NCBI GenBank assembly: GCA_964013405.1
Contig: CAXGWI010000008.1
Span: 1 to 63,464, forward strand
From: an uncultured Myxococcales bacterium
GTDB lineage: Bacteria; Myxococcota; UBA4151
DNA: 63,464 nt
Direction of reading: 5' to 3'
The first letter of the stretch is position 1, and each line of letters opens with the position of its first letter. A program made the translations under genes and the position numbers. Shown here one piece after another: positions 21,446 through 29,520 of this stretch. The notes under the pieces were generated by a model. The model was given only the letters and a program-made list of their open reading frames with translations. It had not been told where the DNA came from and did no database searches.

Positions 21446-23149
21446 ATGCCAAACAGCGTTCCCCCTTCAAATGCGGTTGAAACCAAAACCTTTTCAGACT
21501 TCGTAGCGCACTCAAATTATTCGCTGATGGATTCGCTCAATGCGGACCCAGAAGCGACTAAAGATGGCAATGACCATCACCCTCGACAAGTGCGATCTGG
21601 CCATTATGTCCCGGTGAGACCCACACCCATAGGGTCTCCTGACTACGTCGCCCACAGCAGCGCCTTATTCAACGAATTAGGTCTGAGCCATACGCTCGCT
21701 CAGGATGACGCATTCATGCGTCTGTTTTCCGGCGATCTAAGTGTGGCGCAGGCGCCAATGCACCCCTTTGGATGGGCGACCGGGTACGCGCTTTCTATTT
21801 ATGGGATGGAGTACACCGAACAGTGCCCTTTCAGAAACGGTAATGGTTATGGTGATGGTCGAGCGGTCTCGGTGTTCGAGGGCTGTTTCAAGGGTGTGCG
21901 TTGGGAAATGCAGCTTAAAGGCGGTGGCAGAACGCCATACTGTCGTGGCGGCGATGGGCGCACCGTGCTGCGGTCAAGCGTACGCGAGTTTCTCGCGCAG
22001 GAGTTGATGCACGCCCTCGGTATACCCACCTCGCGCTCTTTAACGCTGTATATGTCCCGAACCGAGACGGTAAGCAGACCCTGGTACAGTGCAAATTCGA
22101 GATCCTTCAATCCCGATGTCATGGTCAGTAATCCCGTCGCCATCTCAACCCGTATCGCCCCCTCATTCCTCCGTGTAGGTCAGCTTGAGTTGTTCGCTCG
22201 GCGCGCCCGCGGTGGCGCCCATCCCAACGCGCTCAAAGAACTGAGGATGATTGTCCAACATCTCATGGAGCGGAATTACCGACGGGAGATTGATTCGACC
22301 CTTGCCTTTGGCGACCAAGTGGTTGAGCTGGCTCGACTGTTTCGAGGACGACTCGTACGCCTCGTGGCGAATTGGATCCGAGTGGGCTACTGTCAGGGGA
22401 ATTTTAACAGCGATAACTGTGCGGCAGGTGGCTTCACCCTCGACTACGGCCCCTTTGGATTCTGCGAACAATTCGACCCTAGATTCCAGCCCTGGACCGG
22501 AGGCGGTGACCACTTCTGTTTTTTCAATCAGCCGGCTGCTGCCGAGACCAACTTTCAGATGTTCTGTACAGCGCTTCGACCACTACTCAGCGACAACAAC
22601 GCGGCCTTGGCGCAGCTCGATGACACTCGAGGCGGGTTCGGAGAGGCGATGGAACACGAGCTTGAACGGATGTGGACCCGTAAACTCGGTCTGACAACGT
22701 TTGATCCCACGCTGCTGCGCGACTTGCTGCATCTGATGGTTCGTACCAAGGTCGACTACACGATCCTGTTCCGACAACTTTCAGACATTCCAGACTCTCT
22801 CTCTCCATTGAAACAAAGTTTTTATGAATCCGGCTCAGCGCAGCGCGACGCGCAATGGACAGACTGGTTACGCCGATGGCGCGATCAGGTAATGCGTAGC
22901 GGCGACGTCGGAGAAACCTCGGCGTCCATGAAGCGGGCGAACCCCAGCGTGACTTGGCGGGAGTGGTTGATCGCCCCGGCCTATCAAGAGGCAGAACGGG
23001 GCAATCACGGCTTAGTTCATGAGATTCAAGAGGTATTCAGCACACCATATGGTGAATTATTACCGAAGCTTGCAGCCAAGTACGATCGTCTTAAACCCAA
23101 AGAATTCTTTAATGCCGGCGGCGTGTCCCACTATAGCTGCTCATCCTGA
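21446..23149 (+). CDS. selO: Protein adenylyltransferase SelO (YdiU family)
   Basis: GDGRA, QLKGGGRTPY.RGGDGR.VLRSSVREFL, QGNFNSDN, DYGPFGF; C-terminal SCSS. Confidence 0.92.
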   Translation: MPNSVPPSNAVETKTFSDFVAHSNYSLMDSLNADPEATKDGNDHHPRQVRSGHYVPVRPTPIGSPDYVAHSSALFNELGLSHTLAQDDAFMRLFSGDLSVAQAPMHPFGWATGYALSIYGMEYTEQCPFRNGNGYGDGRAVSVFEGCFKGVRWEMQLKGGGRTPYCRGGDGRTVLRSSVREFLAQELMHALGIPTSRSLTLYMSRTETVSRPWYSANSRSFNPDVMVSNPVAISTRIAPSFLRVGQLELFARRARGGAHPNALKELRMIVQHLMERNYRREIDSTLAFGDQVVELARLFRGRLVRLVANWIRVGYCQGNFNSDNCAAGGFTLDYGPFGFCEQFDPRFQPWTGGGDHFCFFNQPAAAETNFQMFCTALRPLLSDNNAALAQLDDTRGGFGEAMEHELERMWTRKLGLTTFDPTLLRDLLHLMVRTKVDYTILFRQLSDIPDSLSPLKQSFYESGSAQRDAQWTDWLRRWRDQVMRSGDVGETSASMKRANPSVTWREWLIAPAYQEAERGNHGLVHEIQEVFSTPYGELLPKLAAKYDRLKPKEFFNAGGVSHYSCSS

Positions 23150-24108: not shown

Positions 24109-24328
24109 AGAGGGCGCCGGCCCTGAAGTACTATAGGCAGGCTCGTCACTCTGACGTGGAGCGTGCGGTTCGATGGGCGGCGCTTGTGCAACGGGGAAAC
24201 AGTAAGCTCATCAAGCTCGAAGATCGGTTGAGGGAAAATCGACCAAACGGCACAACTTGACCCGGACAAAAACCGTAAGATACTGTTCTTGCGCTGTTTT
24301 TTTGCTTCGACTCAAGGTGAAGGTCCCC

Positions 24329-24682
24329 ATGTCAGCCAACCACCTTTCTGTTCTCCTCCTCCTGTTCGTTGCCGCCTGTGCGACCAAGGGGTCTTCAGGC
24401 TTCCAACTCGCCCAATCCCCCCGGTGTGCCCCCGACCTTTGCGAGATTCATTCGGCCGAACCCACTTGGCTCAGGGAACCCTGCATCGAACGATGTCCCG
24501 ACGGATGGATTCGGAGCTGTTGCGGCAGGGGCATGGCGTTGGCTGACGGAGAGCAGTGTCCCTGCGTGCCCAAGAAGCACAACGACGCATGCCGCAGGAC
24601 CATGATGCCTCGGATCGAATGTAAGCCGGGGGGTGACCCCCTTGAAGCCTGTAAACGGCATGATCCGGGCCCCCCCCCCTGA
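24329..24682 (+). CDS. Small Cys-rich lipoprotein
   Basis: MSANHLSVLLLLFVAAC lipobox followed by about 11 further Cys; C10 run just before the stop. Confidence 0.55.
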   Translation: MSANHLSVLLLLFVAACATKGSSGFQLAQSPRCAPDLCEIHSAEPTWLREPCIERCPDGWIRSCCGRGMALADGEQCPCVPKKHNDACRRTMMPRIECKPGGDPLEACKRHDPGPPP

Positions 24683-26008: not shown

Positions 26009-26122
26009 AGCGGCTCCCCTCAGCCCGTTCTTACCGGCCCCTGCGGCAAAAATGATCGTCATCCAATTGAAGAGGCAGAAACCCGATCGACAGATCGCCT
26101 AGAATGGAGTCCCAATACCCAT

Positions 26123-26151
26123 TTGCACATTTGCGCAAATATGCATAAGGT
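26123..26151 (+). promoter_or_regulatory. Promoter with embedded palindromic operator (probable ArsR autoregulation site)
   Basis: TTGCAC-N17-TAAGGT, 7 nt before ATG 26159. The spacer holds the perfect palindrome ATTTGCGCAAAT (26129-26140), extending to TGCACATTTGCGCAAATATGCA (26124-26145, one mismatch). Confidence 0.7.
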
Positions 26152-26158
26152 GCTGTCC

Positions 26159-26467
26159 ATGGATACTGAAACCGTCGAAAACCTGGCTGGACTGCTCAAA
26201 GCCTTGGGAGAGGTCAACAGGCTCTCTTTGGTGTGCAGGCTCTGTGACTGCAACACGCCCCAGAATGCGATGTGCCTGTGCGAGTGCTGCAGTGTGGATG
26301 CGTCAGGCGTATCCAGACATCTCAAACTGCTCTCGAAAGAGGGAATCGTGAGCGTTGAGAAGCGAGGCAGAGAGCGAAGCTATTCGTTAAATAGATCGTA
26401 TGTTGCGAGTCAGTTGAGAGTGCTCGCAGACAAGATTGAATGGACTGAAAATGAGGAGGCATCATGA
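26159..26467 (+). CDS. ArsR/SmtB-family metalloregulator with a 7-Cys cluster
   Basis: LKALGEVNRL, SGVSRHLKLL.KEGIV..EKRGRE..YSL winged HTH; CRLCDC...MCLCECC lies just before the recognition helix. Confidence 0.88.
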   Translation: MDTETVENLAGLLKALGEVNRLSLVCRLCDCNTPQNAMCLCECCSVDASGVSRHLKLLSKEGIVSVEKRGRERSYSLNRSYVASQLRVLADKIEWTENEEAS

Positions 26468-26559
26468 GCGAAGAACCCTGTAAGTGTGACTGTGCTAAAG
26501 ACGATTGCTGTGCGAATCGGACGTGTTCCTGCTGCGAAAAGGCTTGTTGCTGCGACTGA
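26464..26559 (+). CDS. Metallothionein-like peptide (31 aa, 11 Cys)
   Basis: Not in the ORF track. Translates to MSEEPCKCDCAKDDCCANRTCSCCEKACCCD*. ATGA overlap with the arsR stop; GAGGAGG at 26453-26459. Confidence 0.75.
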   Translation: MSEEPCKCDCAKDDCCANRTCSCCEKACCCD

Positions 26560-26611
26560 GCCGGAAGTTCTGACAAACTCTGAGCGTCAGGGTCCGTTCG
26601 ACTCCACCAAA

Positions 26612-27589
26612 CTAGGCTGGAGACGTCTGAGCGGTGGCCTGATGCATGCATGCCTCTAAGCCACTCTGCAGGGCTTCGGCGTCAAGGCCTTTGCCGATGA
26701 AGACAAGTCGGCAAGATCGCTTGTCATCAATCCAGAGGCGGTCTGGCTTCACATCCACAACGTCTCGAACCCCGTTGAAGACAAACGCGCGCGGCTGGTC
26801 CGCAACTGCGATCATGCCCTTCATCCGAAGAACGGCTCCCTCTTGACGGCGAACGAGCCTGCCAAGCCAGAGATCAAGTGCGTCGAGATCAACGTTCCCC
26901 TGAGCCTCAAGGCCCACAGCACGGATCGCCTCATCGTGGACATGGGAATCAGTGGTCATTGTATCCACAGACCCAAGGCCCATGCCACCAGCGGCTCCCC
27001 CCATTTCCAAGACGTCGGAGACATCGACTTGCCCGAACTGGGCTCGAAGAATCCTCGCAAGCGGATTGATCTTTCCAATCTCTATCTCCACCGCCTCGAG
27101 CCCTTGATCGGTCATGCGGTCCATCTTGTTGAGAATAACCATGTCGGCGTAAGTGATCTGTTCGAGGCAGGCATCGACCTCAGTTAACGATCGACTTAAG
27201 TGCTCCGCATCGACCACCGTGACCACACCGTCCAGGACAAAGGGCGCCCTGATCTCGGCTCGATCGAAGAGCCGCATCACGGGTCCTGGCTCGGCCAATC
27301 CCGTGGTTTCGATGATCACATGGTCGAAGTCGGCTCGCCGCTGCGCAATTTGTTGCAGGGCAGCCAAAAGATCAGAGCGAACCGAACAACAAACACAGCC
27401 ACCGTTGAGTTCGAAAAGAGTCTCACTGGGCTGCAGCATCCGCAAACCATCGATGCCCATGCCAGCAAACTCATTCTCGATTACAGCGAATCGGTGACCT
27501 GTTTGGGCCTTCAAGACATGCTCAAGGAGCGTGGTTTTACCAGCCCCAAGAAATCCCGTGATCAGCGTAACGGGGATCGGAGTGCTCAC
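26612..27589 (-). CDS. COG0523/CobW-family G3E GTPase metallochaperone
   Basis: GFLGAGKTT, ENEF, GCVCC, IETTGLAEP, NKMD, CobW_C domain (LRMKG...LVFIG); GGAGG RBS. Confidence 0.93.
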   Translation of the reverse strand: MSTPIPVTLITGFLGAGKTTLLEHVLKAQTGHRFAVIENEFAGMGIDGLRMLQPSETLFELNGGCVCCSVRSDLLAALQQIAQRRADFDHVIIETTGLAEPGPVMRLFDRAEIRAPFVLDGVVTVVDAEHLSRSLTEVDACLEQITYADMVILNKMDRMTDQGLEAVEIEIGKINPLARILRAQFGQVDVSDVLEMGGAAGGMGLGSVDTMTTDSHVHDEAIRAVGLEAQGNVDLDALDLWLGRLVRRQEGAVLRMKGMIAVADQPRAFVFNGVRDVVDVKPDRLWIDDKRSCRLVFIGKGLDAEALQSGLEACMHQATAQTSPA

Positions 27590-27722: not shown

Positions 27723-28436
27723 TCACCCTGACTGGATCCCGAAATCTGCTTGCTCAGAATCGACAGCCATCGCCTGCTCCACATCATAGCCAGGCTGCTC
27801 TCCCGAGTCACCAGAACGGACAGCTCCCGTCAGGATCGAGATGGGGATGCGCCCTCCATCTCCCCTGAGCAGAGTCGCATCGGGATTCATCGCTTCAATC
27901 GCACGAACCACAGAGGTTTCTACATCCGCATCGAGCGTCGTGGCACCATCCACCCAAACCTTATGAGCCGTGCCCACGCGCTCCATCAGAGTCGCCGCTG
28001 CGTCGCTTCGCAGGGTGTCGAGAAAGCTTGGTCCATCCACCATCGTGACCACCTGCTGAATCTGGGCCACGTCCTCAAGGACCGCGCCTGTGTCATCGGG
28101 CACGGTAAAGGTCTTTGCCAACGAGTCCAAATCGCTCTGAGGAGGTACCTGAATCACCACATGGTCGGCCCGCCCCTCTTCAGCCAGTCGTCTGACCTTG
28201 GTCAGCACATCCCAGCGAACCGTGCAGCAAGAACATCCCTGCCCCAGGCGCTTCAGGCGCTGTGTCGTCGGCAGTAGGGTCAGGCCGGTTCGAGATGCAG
28301 CCCGCTTTGAGGCTTTCCAAGGCGTAATCGCCGCGACTCGAAGCCCCCCGCAATCGTTGGTCAGTCGTTCCAGCAGTCCTGTACCTCGGGTACCAGGAGC
28401 GCCAATAAAGATGGTCACAGAAAGAGGCTTTGTCAT
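27723..28436 (-). CDS. Degenerate COG0523-like protein (GCSCC kept, GTPase motifs eroded, no CobW_C domain)
   Basis: GQGCSCCTVRWD, DHVVI, VVTMVDG and MNPDA align with CobW. Walker A position reads GAPGTRGT; ETTG and NKxD are absent. Confidence 0.7.
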   Translation of the reverse strand: MTKPLSVTIFIGAPGTRGTGLLERLTNDCGGLRVAAITPWKASKRAASRTGLTLLPTTQRLKRLGQGCSCCTVRWDVLTKVRRLAEEGRADHVVIQVPPQSDLDSLAKTFTVPDDTGAVLEDVAQIQQVVTMVDGPSFLDTLRSDAAATLMERVGTAHKVWVDGATTLDADVETSVVRAIEAMNPDATLLRGDGGRIPISILTGAVRSGDSGEQPGYDVEQAMAVDSEQADFGIQSG

Positions 28437-28648
28437 GGGTCTGCTCCGTGAATTCAATCACCCGATTAGCGGGCGACAAAAAGCATTTTTAGCGGTCACG
28501 CTCTCGATGATCCTCAGTGTTTATATATGTTCATAGGACGTTTAAGAAGGCTTGGATTCGCACGAATCATTTCGTGGACTAAAGTGAACGACTTTGGTCA
28601 TGACGAAGGCTTGCCAAAGGCCTGGCGAGCATAAGAGGAGATCCATCC

Positions 28649-29074
28649 ATGTTCAGTTCCATTCTCGATGCCATCATTGGCGGCGCCATCATTGGCCTTG
28701 CCGCCTCGTGGCTCCTGCTGGCGAAAGGACGAGTTGCCGGGATCAGCGGTATCGTCGGGTCCCTCTTGACCCCCTGGAGTGACGACTCCGTATGGCGGCT
28801 GAGCTTCGTCGGCGGTCTGCTTGTTGGCGGCGCGCTTCTCGTCCTCATCTTACCCACCGCAATCGTTGCACCCAGTGGACGGTCACTGGCCTTGCTTGCC
28901 GCCGCCGGCCTCGCCGTCGGCTATGGCACCCAGTTGGGGAGCGGCTGTACCAGCGGTCACGGCATCTGTGGGCTGAGCCGGTTCTCGCCCCGATCCCTCG
29001 TCGCAACGCTCACTTTTATGGCGACGGGTTTCGCCACCGCGACCGTGATCGGTCTGATGGGAGTTGGCTCATGA
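28649..29074 (+). CDS. YeeE/YedE-family sulfur-compound transporter subunit
   Basis: GRVAGISGI and GSGCTSGHGICG..R.SPRS motifs. Confidence 0.9.
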   Translation: MFSSILDAIIGGAIIGLAASWLLLAKGRVAGISGIVGSLLTPWSDDSVWRLSFVGGLLVGGALLVLILPTAIVAPSGRSLALLAAAGLAVGYGTQLGSGCTSGHGICGLSRFSPRSLVATLTFMATGFATATVIGLMGVGS

Positions 29075-29520
29075 ATCGCCCTCTTGCCGCCTTTCTCGGT
29101 GGTGTCATCTTCGCAGTGGGCTTGGGTATCTCGGGGATGACAGACGCCAATAAAGTGATTGGATTTTTGAACCTTGCTGGACCGTGGGATCCAAGCCTGG
29201 CTTTTGTGATGGTCGGCGGGATTGGCGTCCACTTGGCCCTCTACCGACTGATCTTACGCCGTGAAAGCCCACTGTTGAGTACTCGGTTCCACCTACCCAC
29301 CCGCCGGGACATCACCCCTCAGTTGGTGGGAGGAGCGGCCCTCTTTGGTATCGGCTGGGGCGCCGGTGGGTTTTGCCCCGGCCCTGGCATCGTCTCTGTG
29401 GTCGGATTCGGCTCCCCCGCTGTCGTCTTTGTTCTCGCCATGATCGGCGGGATGGGCTTGCATCGATTTCTCCACCCCCCAGTGACGACCACCGCAAATC
29501 CAACGGAGGCACCATCGTAG
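29071..29520 (+). CDS. YeeE/YedE-family partner subunit
   Basis: GLGISGM....KVIGFL....WDPSL.FVM and FGIGWG..GFCPGP; ATGA overlap gives the start at 29071. Confidence 0.9.
   Translation: MNRPLAAFLGGVIFAVGLGISGMTDANKVIGFLNLAGPWDPSLAFVMVGGIGVHLALYRLILRRESPLLSTRFHLPTRRDITPQLVGGAALFGIGWGAGGFCPGPGIVSVVGFGSPAVVFVLAMIGGMGLHRFLHPPVTTTANPTEAPS

Follow-up and report, generated by a model that had tools for sequence, protein, structure and literature searches.

The window analysed here is a stretch of 63,464 nucleotides (nt) from an uncultured Myxococcales bacterium (assembly GCA_964013405.1, contig CAXGWI010000008.1), and our subject is a two-gene unit within it: an arsR gene for a repressor of the ArsR/SmtB family, and a very short gene for a cysteine-rich peptide that is likely a metallothionein (Table 1). 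Translation and coordinates confirm what the original prediction had described, an open reading frame (ORF) of 31 amino acids (aa) with 11 cysteines (Cys), lacking histidine (His), aromatic residues and large aliphatic ones (isoleucine, leucine and valine are all absent), with a GAGGAGG ribosome-binding site and an ATGA, at 26464-26467, in which the start of the peptide gene overlaps the arsR stop. The gaps between successive Cys are, in order, 1-1-4-0-4-1-0-3-0-0.

The Cys fraction of the window peptide, 0.355, is the highest among the 51,828 ATG-started ORFs of 15-80 aa in the whole 3.9-Mb genome, and on this ground we reject a chance ORF. Just 10 of the 16,219 ORFs of 25-40 aa hold six or more Cys: eight have 6, the runner-up has 8 and the window peptide has 11. 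An opposite-strand artefact was likewise rejected as a reading of this ORF, as was eukaryotic contamination, given the bacterial operon, the Shine-Dalgarno motif, the operator and the spread over eight phyla described below.

Table 1. Features of the two-gene unit, its surroundings and the phage copies (window coordinates unless a locus is named)
Feature	Position	Strand	Remarks
31-aa, 11-Cys peptide gene, likely metallothionein	26464..26559	+	CxCxC-x4-CC-x4-CxCC-x3-CCC
ArsR/SmtB-family repressor gene, 102 aa	26159..26467	+	NF033788, 55.9 bits against a cut-off of 55
12-2-12 imperfect inverted repeat, likely operator	26122..26147	.	10/12 positions symmetric; ends 11 nt 5' of the arsR ATG
Shine-Dalgarno-like GAGGAGG	26453..26459	+	within the final arsR codons; 4 nt 5' of the peptide ATG
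COG0523/CobW-type putative zinc metallochaperone GTPase gene	26612..27589	-	convergent with the peptide gene; context only, outside the conserved two-gene unit
Second, shorter CobW-domain gene	27723..28457	-	context only
Phage copy of the peptide gene	L099:1498-1590	-	2390/2400 nt identical to L144
Phage copy of the peptide gene	L144:1486-1578	+	2390/2400 nt identical to L099

Loci for comparison were gathered by ArsR similarity alone, and the region downstream was inspected only afterwards. An ArsR of at least 56% identity was counted as close; this gave 43 loci, including the window and one duplicate, and hence 41 other distinct loci. A short Cys-rich ORF lies directly 3' of arsR in 42 of the 43 close loci and in none of the 30 whose ArsR is distant, and the sole close locus that lacks it, L067, has a sequence that ends inside arsR. 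In the 42 loci the ORF starts between -26 and +98 nt relative to the arsR stop, and a Shine-Dalgarno-like motif precedes it in 38. Exactly 11 Cys are present in 41 of the 42 peptides, L048 being the exception. The Cys spacing is identical to that of the window peptide in 33, and longer or shifted loops are seen in four. At L039, L041, L042 and L046, the central CC has lost one Cys and the N-terminal group has gained one, with the total staying at 11, and a Cys number kept despite a moved position is what a fixed cluster stoichiometry would require.

Among the 32 distinct canonical cores, the mean proportion of synonymous differences (pS) is 0.93, which is saturated, against a proportion of nonsynonymous differences (pN) of 0.22, with pN lower in 496 of 496 pairs; because canonical cores were chosen with invariant Cys columns, this pN is a lower bound. 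Both TGT and TGC are used at every Cys column of these cores. The conserved Cys-rich ORF with synonymous variation that the original prediction proposed to look for behind orthologous arsR genes is thus present. On this sequence evidence, the peptide gene is a real, conserved and mostly uncalled small gene under purifying selection. Two variants stand apart: at L048:3317-3406 the peptide terminates after 8 Cys, possibly through a recent truncation, and L219 (genome G060, about 1461-1580) encodes a 39-aa variant that reaches 15 Cys by repeating a unit of four residues, two of them Cys, which is either an expansion as in modular metallothioneins or an assembly slip.

By record titles, the carriers belong to Myxococcota, Cyanobacteriota, Pseudomonadota, Chloroflexota, Calditrichota, Planctomycetota, Nitrospinota and Bdellovibrionota. 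Nearly all are metagenome-assembled genomes (MAGs), with one cultured cyanobacterium (L037, Cf. Phormidesmis sp. LEGE 11477), and a same-genus genome (G001) has the same ArsR and peptide as a marine Myxococcales MAG (L002 = L031). Occurrence within the window's phylum is patchy, with 6 true copies in 401 genomes; 10 of the 16 matches to the Cys-spacing DNA pattern in the phylum genome sample are simple repeats or poly-Cys frames. Pseudomonadota stand at several positions in the ArsR tree, but with low support and possible contamination of MAG bins, and we do not claim individual transfers.

Pooled from all sources, the distinct 11-Cys peptides number at least 96, are 29-45 aa long and consist of 35% Cys, 17% lysine (Lys) and 11% glutamate (Glu); across 96 of them, His occurs in one, an aromatic residue in three and a signal peptide-like hydrophobic run in none. 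In size, Cys content and Cys clusters they agree with the metallothionein superfamily, whose members are small (<100 aa), contain roughly 15-30% Cys or more and carry CxC, CC and CCC motifs (PMC8476144; PMC9781358).

The ArsR upstream matches the winged helix-turn-helix profile and has 751 relatives on record. Its PDB matches are CadC and CzrA, the best relatives being CadC-type at E ~1e-7, in which C39-x-C41 aligns with the CxC of CadC helix alpha3. Cys sites of this type favour Cd/Pb-like ions (PMC11672702; PMC8790569), a point in favour of the zinc/cadmium reading given below. Six residues, C29, C31, C39, C41, C43 and C44, are conserved at 99-100% across 159 ArsR sequences. The protein has neither the N-terminal Cys nor the alpha5 His motif DxHx10Hx2(H/E), its only His being H54, so the site fits neither the alpha3N (CadC) nor the alpha5 (SmtB/CzrA) class as defined in PMC11672702 and PMC8790569. 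We regard the six-Cys ArsR as having a putative sensor site of an undescribed kind. The alpha3 stretch of the repressor ends in CECC, and the CxCC cluster of the peptide most often takes this same form; shared ancestry or a matched metal preference may explain this.

A 12-2-12 repeat is found 5' of all 43 close arsR genes, with 6-10 of 12 positions symmetric and a TTGACA-like left arm; in 27 of the 43, 9 nt separate its end from the start codon. This arrangement suggests that the operator overlaps the promoter and, since the distance from operator to ATG is so short, that the transcript is leaderless. An operator model built without the window site finds a single genomic site above 12 bits in the 3.9 Mb, at 26122 with 41 bits, so the only visible target of this ArsR is arsR itself together with the peptide gene. 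Scanning around the unit for a sigma-70 consensus and for terminators gave no site at the threshold used, and folding of the 3' region does not exceed that of shuffled sequences (z -1.5).

Parts of the window stretch are present in 12 marine metatranscriptome runs from 9 studies, and five of these runs (X1-X5) were mapped to it. X1 yields one 906-nt contig, at 26161-27065, with zero differences. X2, from the same sample, and X4, from the same study, also cover the peptide gene, while X3 and X5, from two further studies, cover arsR and continue into the opening half of a related peptide. Of the surrounding 19.9 kb, the RNA runs leave most without cover, which fits RNA and not DNA carry-over. 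The runs were selected using the stretch itself, their contigs give neither strand nor start, and that of X1 enters the convergent cobW; the missing cover upstream of 26161 is not read as a mapped start. Within these limits, the runs lend weak support to transcription of arsR and the peptide gene, and translation is predicted.

The peptide gene also occurs apart from arsR. A reciprocal DNA-pattern search for the Cys spacing returned at least 118 metagenome loci and 6 viral (IMG/VR) loci. We took as family members those peptides of at most 46 aa with 11 Cys and at least five Lys, Glu or aspartate residues. Among the matches listed, 69 of the 124 metagenome and viral loci belong to the family by this definition, and 55 are simple repeats or poly-Cys frames, including all 6 IMG/VR matches, so that the DNA pattern alone is not specific. 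ArsR lies directly 5' in 42 of these 69 listed members; the other 27 comprise 23 loci low in guanine and cytosine (low-GC) without ArsR or operator, two phage loci, L119 and L147. At L119 the operator stands directly 5' of the peptide gene and arsR is absent, and the sequence of L147 starts too near the peptide gene for its upstream content to be judged. The low-GC subfamily (23 listed loci) often adjoins genes for transfer-messenger RNA (tmRNA)/SmpB, SelO and an SEC-C protein; the SmpB of L093 is named Methylophilaceae, and the remaining low-GC loci are assigned by likeness only.

Some further observations concern these ArsR-less copies. What looks like the 3' end of a tmRNA gene, a common integration site, precedes the peptide gene at L093, L110, L157 and L161. 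The promoter region of the low-GC copies lacks a 12-2-12 operator and contains a conserved motif of its own that begins with TTGACA. The SEC-C-type protein that often adjoins them, with SelO nearby (L093, L088, L081, L089, L145 and other low-GC loci), has 60-66 aa and an extra N-terminal CC-x3-CC, and is possibly a second small metal-binding protein. In L099 and L144 the peptide gene sits in a phage region for replication and head assembly, among DNA polymerase, GroES and clamp-loader genes, and is a candidate phage-borne metallothionein; none of nine related IMG/VR phage loci has the peptide.

The immediate neighbours of the arsR-peptide unit vary, which marks the unit as a stand-alone cassette; 25 of 38 loci have a next gene that runs the other way. 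Pfam scans of the flanks covered the 80 nearest and 110 further ORFs of the genome loci and 52 ORFs of the metagenome loci, and the recurring genes are COG0523/CobW, ZnuA, CDF and DUF1826. By uniform tblastn, one of these lies within ~3 kb in 17 of the 42 close loci, from five or more lineages. At equal 1.5-kb flanks, zinc genes are found in 11 of 42 close loci against 0 of 30 controls, the genome base rate being 0.4%. The models used for BmtA, Acr3 and YcaO found none of them in the window's genome, which is 94% complete. Other genes were seen near the cassette: a YeeE/YedE-type sulfur transporter pair at 28649-29520, 2 kb away, with a counterpart in L135; SelO genes in unrelated hosts (window 21446-23149; L048, L049, L060, L093); and, at 24257-24682 of the window, a 141-aa ORF with a lipoprotein-like N-terminus, many Cys and no Pfam match.

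We read these peptides as a new family of His-free zinc/cadmium metallothioneins with its own sensor, the ArsR, which likely responds to these metals, and put the probability of this reading at about 0.7; that the peptide is a sink for some thiophilic metal or metalloid appears very probable. Judging from the behaviour of ArsR/SmtB proteins, a metal-free ArsR dimer on the 12-2-12 repeat would repress the probably leaderless transcript that encodes it; binding of a thiophilic divalent ion to the Cys cluster around helix alpha3 would release the DNA, and the peptide would then be made through translational coupling at the ATGA overlap. Metallothionein chemistry suggests that the unfolded peptide would fold around an all-thiolate cluster of the M(II)4Cys11 type with about four Zn(II) or Cd(II), and that metal capture would lower the free ion and reset the repressor. 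From its neighbourhood, the unit may serve zinc homeostasis by buffering zinc surges, and may capture cadmium entering via high-affinity zinc uptake in zinc-poor seawater. We lean, by a narrow balance, towards a broader picture as well: a family independent of BmtA and MymT, with a convergent, His-free, single-cluster M(II)4Cys11 peptide of 25-residue core and an undescribed six-Cys ArsR class, whose 0.45-kb cassette would have moved among at least eight marine phyla, be sensorless in streamlined Methylophilaceae, be carried by a phage and act as a hidden Cd/Zn sink of ocean bacterioplankton.

Several points weigh against the zinc/cadmium assignment. The six-Cys site is unlike any alpha3N or alpha5 site described, so the sensor's metal is extrapolated. 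The zinc queries were picked after the loci had been seen, the loci are kin and not independent of one another, and 25 of the 42 have no zinc gene in the flank examined. COG0523 and ZnuA genes respond to zinc shortage and ArsR repressors usually to excess, so the zinc link does not name the inducer. BmtA co-occurs with the peptide in three of five cyanobacterial carriers, which speaks against a simple zinc store and suggests a different job, such as cadmium capture; this is conceivable in that the His sites of SmtA raise its preference for zinc over cadmium (PMC3323870) and an all-Cys site would not. The AlphaFold model of the peptide, in which metals are not modelled, is uninformative (pTM, the predicted template modelling score, 0.34; no Foldseek match).

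The alternative that survives best, though an unlikely one, is a metallothionein for Cu(I), Ag(I) or Hg(II) and not for Zn/Cd. All-Cys peptides bind such soft ions more tightly than zinc (PMC3323870), a CCC-containing, His-free fungal metallothionein binds four Cu(I) (PMC13107397), mercury is sensed by a multi-Cys ArsR of Streptomyces lividans (PMC11672702), and at L039 a MerC-domain gene follows the peptide gene. Yet the flanking ORFs scanned contain zinc genes and no member of the CopA, CopZ, multicopper oxidase or MerA families, and the cluster types of the peptide are those of ciliate Cd-metallothioneins and not of Cu-metallothioneins.

We find it less probable again that the peptide is no metal store but serves as a thiol or persulfide redox sink, acts as partner of the repressor, works as an attenuator that senses cysteine, or is the precursor of a disulfide peptide or of a ribosomally synthesised and post-translationally modified peptide (RiPP). 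The sulfur transporter genes near the cassette in the window and in L135 would suit a redox role, although persulfide-sensing ArsRs have an alpha5 Cys site and this ArsR lacks that Cys. ArsR partner proteins exist (SrnQ), but the peptide works without the repressor, to judge from 25 copies that have neither ArsR nor operator. An attenuator was rejected, since the downstream gene runs on the other strand in 25 of 38 loci and leaves nothing to attenuate there. The PDB resemblance to disulfide-knotted spider peptides is weak (E 0.6-1.3) and not significant, and the odd Cys number and the lack of a signal peptide speak against a disulfide peptide. The scanned flanks contain no conserved modifying enzyme; a thiazole/oxazole RiPP precursor was rejected, as only ~5 residues precede the first Cys and YcaO was found neither in the genome nor in the scanned flanks.

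Marginally more doubtful still is an ArsR that senses As(III)/Sb(III) with a peptide that sequesters arsenite at three thiolates per ion: C39, C41 and C44 at the alpha3 motif with extra Cys nearby form the canonical arsenic-sensor layout (PMC11672702), Acr3 was not found in the window's genome, and ArsC-like and aquaporin genes lie near the L032 cassette on the other strand, but recognisable ars genes are near just one of 42 loci while zinc genes dominate the neighbourhoods, the ArsR motif is C-L-C and not C-(V/A)-C, and 11 Cys are not divisible by three.

Characterised bacterial metallothioneins are few, knowledge of them was still called limited in 2026 (PMC13578184), and His content has been treated as their hallmark (PMC11705764). 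A His-free, animal-like 11-Cys bacterial family would, if true, change that picture and provide an independent test of M4Cys11/12 clusters as the convergent chemical optimum proposed for animals (PMC8476144). It would also be a candidate explanation for the handling of zinc and cadmium by marine bacteria that have neither efflux pumps nor BmtA, and would supply biosensors with a new metal sensor based on Cys alone, together with its operator. With 31 residues the peptide can be synthesised, and about 100 natural variants, Cys-shifted ones included, are to hand.

The original prediction had held that the peptide is unlike known bacterial metallothioneins, missed by standard gene callers and eukaryote-like. 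Its first point stands: PF02069 (Metallothio_Pro, BmtA/SmtA, metallothionein family 14) matches none of 71 members at E <= 1 and none in the genome. So does the second for the peptides looked up, seven of eight being missing from a collection of 15 billion proteins and the eighth present there unnamed. The third holds for composition and Cys count and fails for Cys spacing, as set out below. In the same 71 members, Pfam gave just a non-specific LSR Cys-rich match (38/71, best E 0.0028) and NCBIfam nothing; PHROGs gave no match. PDB searches by sequence and profile found nothing better than E 0.6 and no solved metallothionein, and a profile search of 1.84 billion representatives returned two matches, both family members. 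The best ESM Atlas score was 0.82, with a cluster of Drosophila-type Metallothio_5 at 0.79, under the level of a trustworthy lead. Searches of the mostly open-access literature, including literal family motifs, found no description of the family, papers on soil-metagenome metallothioneins and on ArsR motif classification being those that could bear on its novelty; nor do four supplements of PMC11705764 describe it, the full candidate list of that paper being hosted elsewhere.

Among known systems, the peptide shares with the animal 11/12-Cys domains (vertebrate alpha, echinoderm alpha, cephalochordate 11C and the mono-modular tunicate metallothioneins) its 11 Cys, its Lys-rich composition without His or aromatics and its one-domain size. 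Such domains bind four divalent ions (PMC8476144, Table 1 of that paper), and metazoan metallothioneins average 31.65% Cys and 0.15% His (PMC11705764). Compared with the vertebrate, echinoderm and cephalochordate 11-Cys domains, however, only 2, 3 and 2 of 10 gaps are identical, forwards or reversed, and the Cys core is shorter, at 25 residues where these three motifs have 28-32; with so few gaps in common, the likeness looks convergent and not homologous. The CCC, CxCC, CC and CxCxC clusters recall the Cd-metallothioneins of Tetrahymena (family 7a), where CCC, CxCC and CxCxC are marks that are almost absent from its Cu-metallothioneins (PMC4862169). Those proteins have 99-191 aa and a multimodular C2-3X6C1-2X6 structure, whereas our peptide corresponds to one module with spacers of 4/4/3.

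In bacteria, the peptide resembles MymT, the mycobacterial Cu-metallothionein, as the product of a small Cys-rich metal-sequestering gene (PMC11672702), but no NCBIfam or Pfam match connects any of the 71 members with it. BmtA proteins have His ligands, a zinc-finger fold and a conserved tyrosine (PMC3323870), features that the near absence of His and aromatic residues in our family does not match; they have ~60 aa and 16% Cys, against ~30 aa and 35% Cys here, and the zinc-finger residues are likewise missing from the peptide. As for the sensor, the alpha3 CxC is common to this ArsR and the CadC type, whereas the N-terminal Cys pair is absent here, the ArsR has pairs of its own in C29/C31, where alpha2 ends, and in C43/C44, which follow the CxC, and its predicted target is a peptide gene where that of CadC-type sensors is an efflux ATPase. 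The overall plan is that of SmtB/SmtA, BxmR/BmtA and AzuR/NmtA, with an ArsR/SmtB repressor, a promoter-overlapping 12-2-12 operator and a small, often overlooked Cys-rich gene (PMC3323870; PMC8790569), but here arsR and the peptide gene stand in tandem, often overlapping, and the sensor site has six Cys and no alpha5 His. The cassette would thus operate like SmtB/SmtA without its peptide being a BmtA: the kind of system is a known one, and the peptide family and the sensor site appear to be new.
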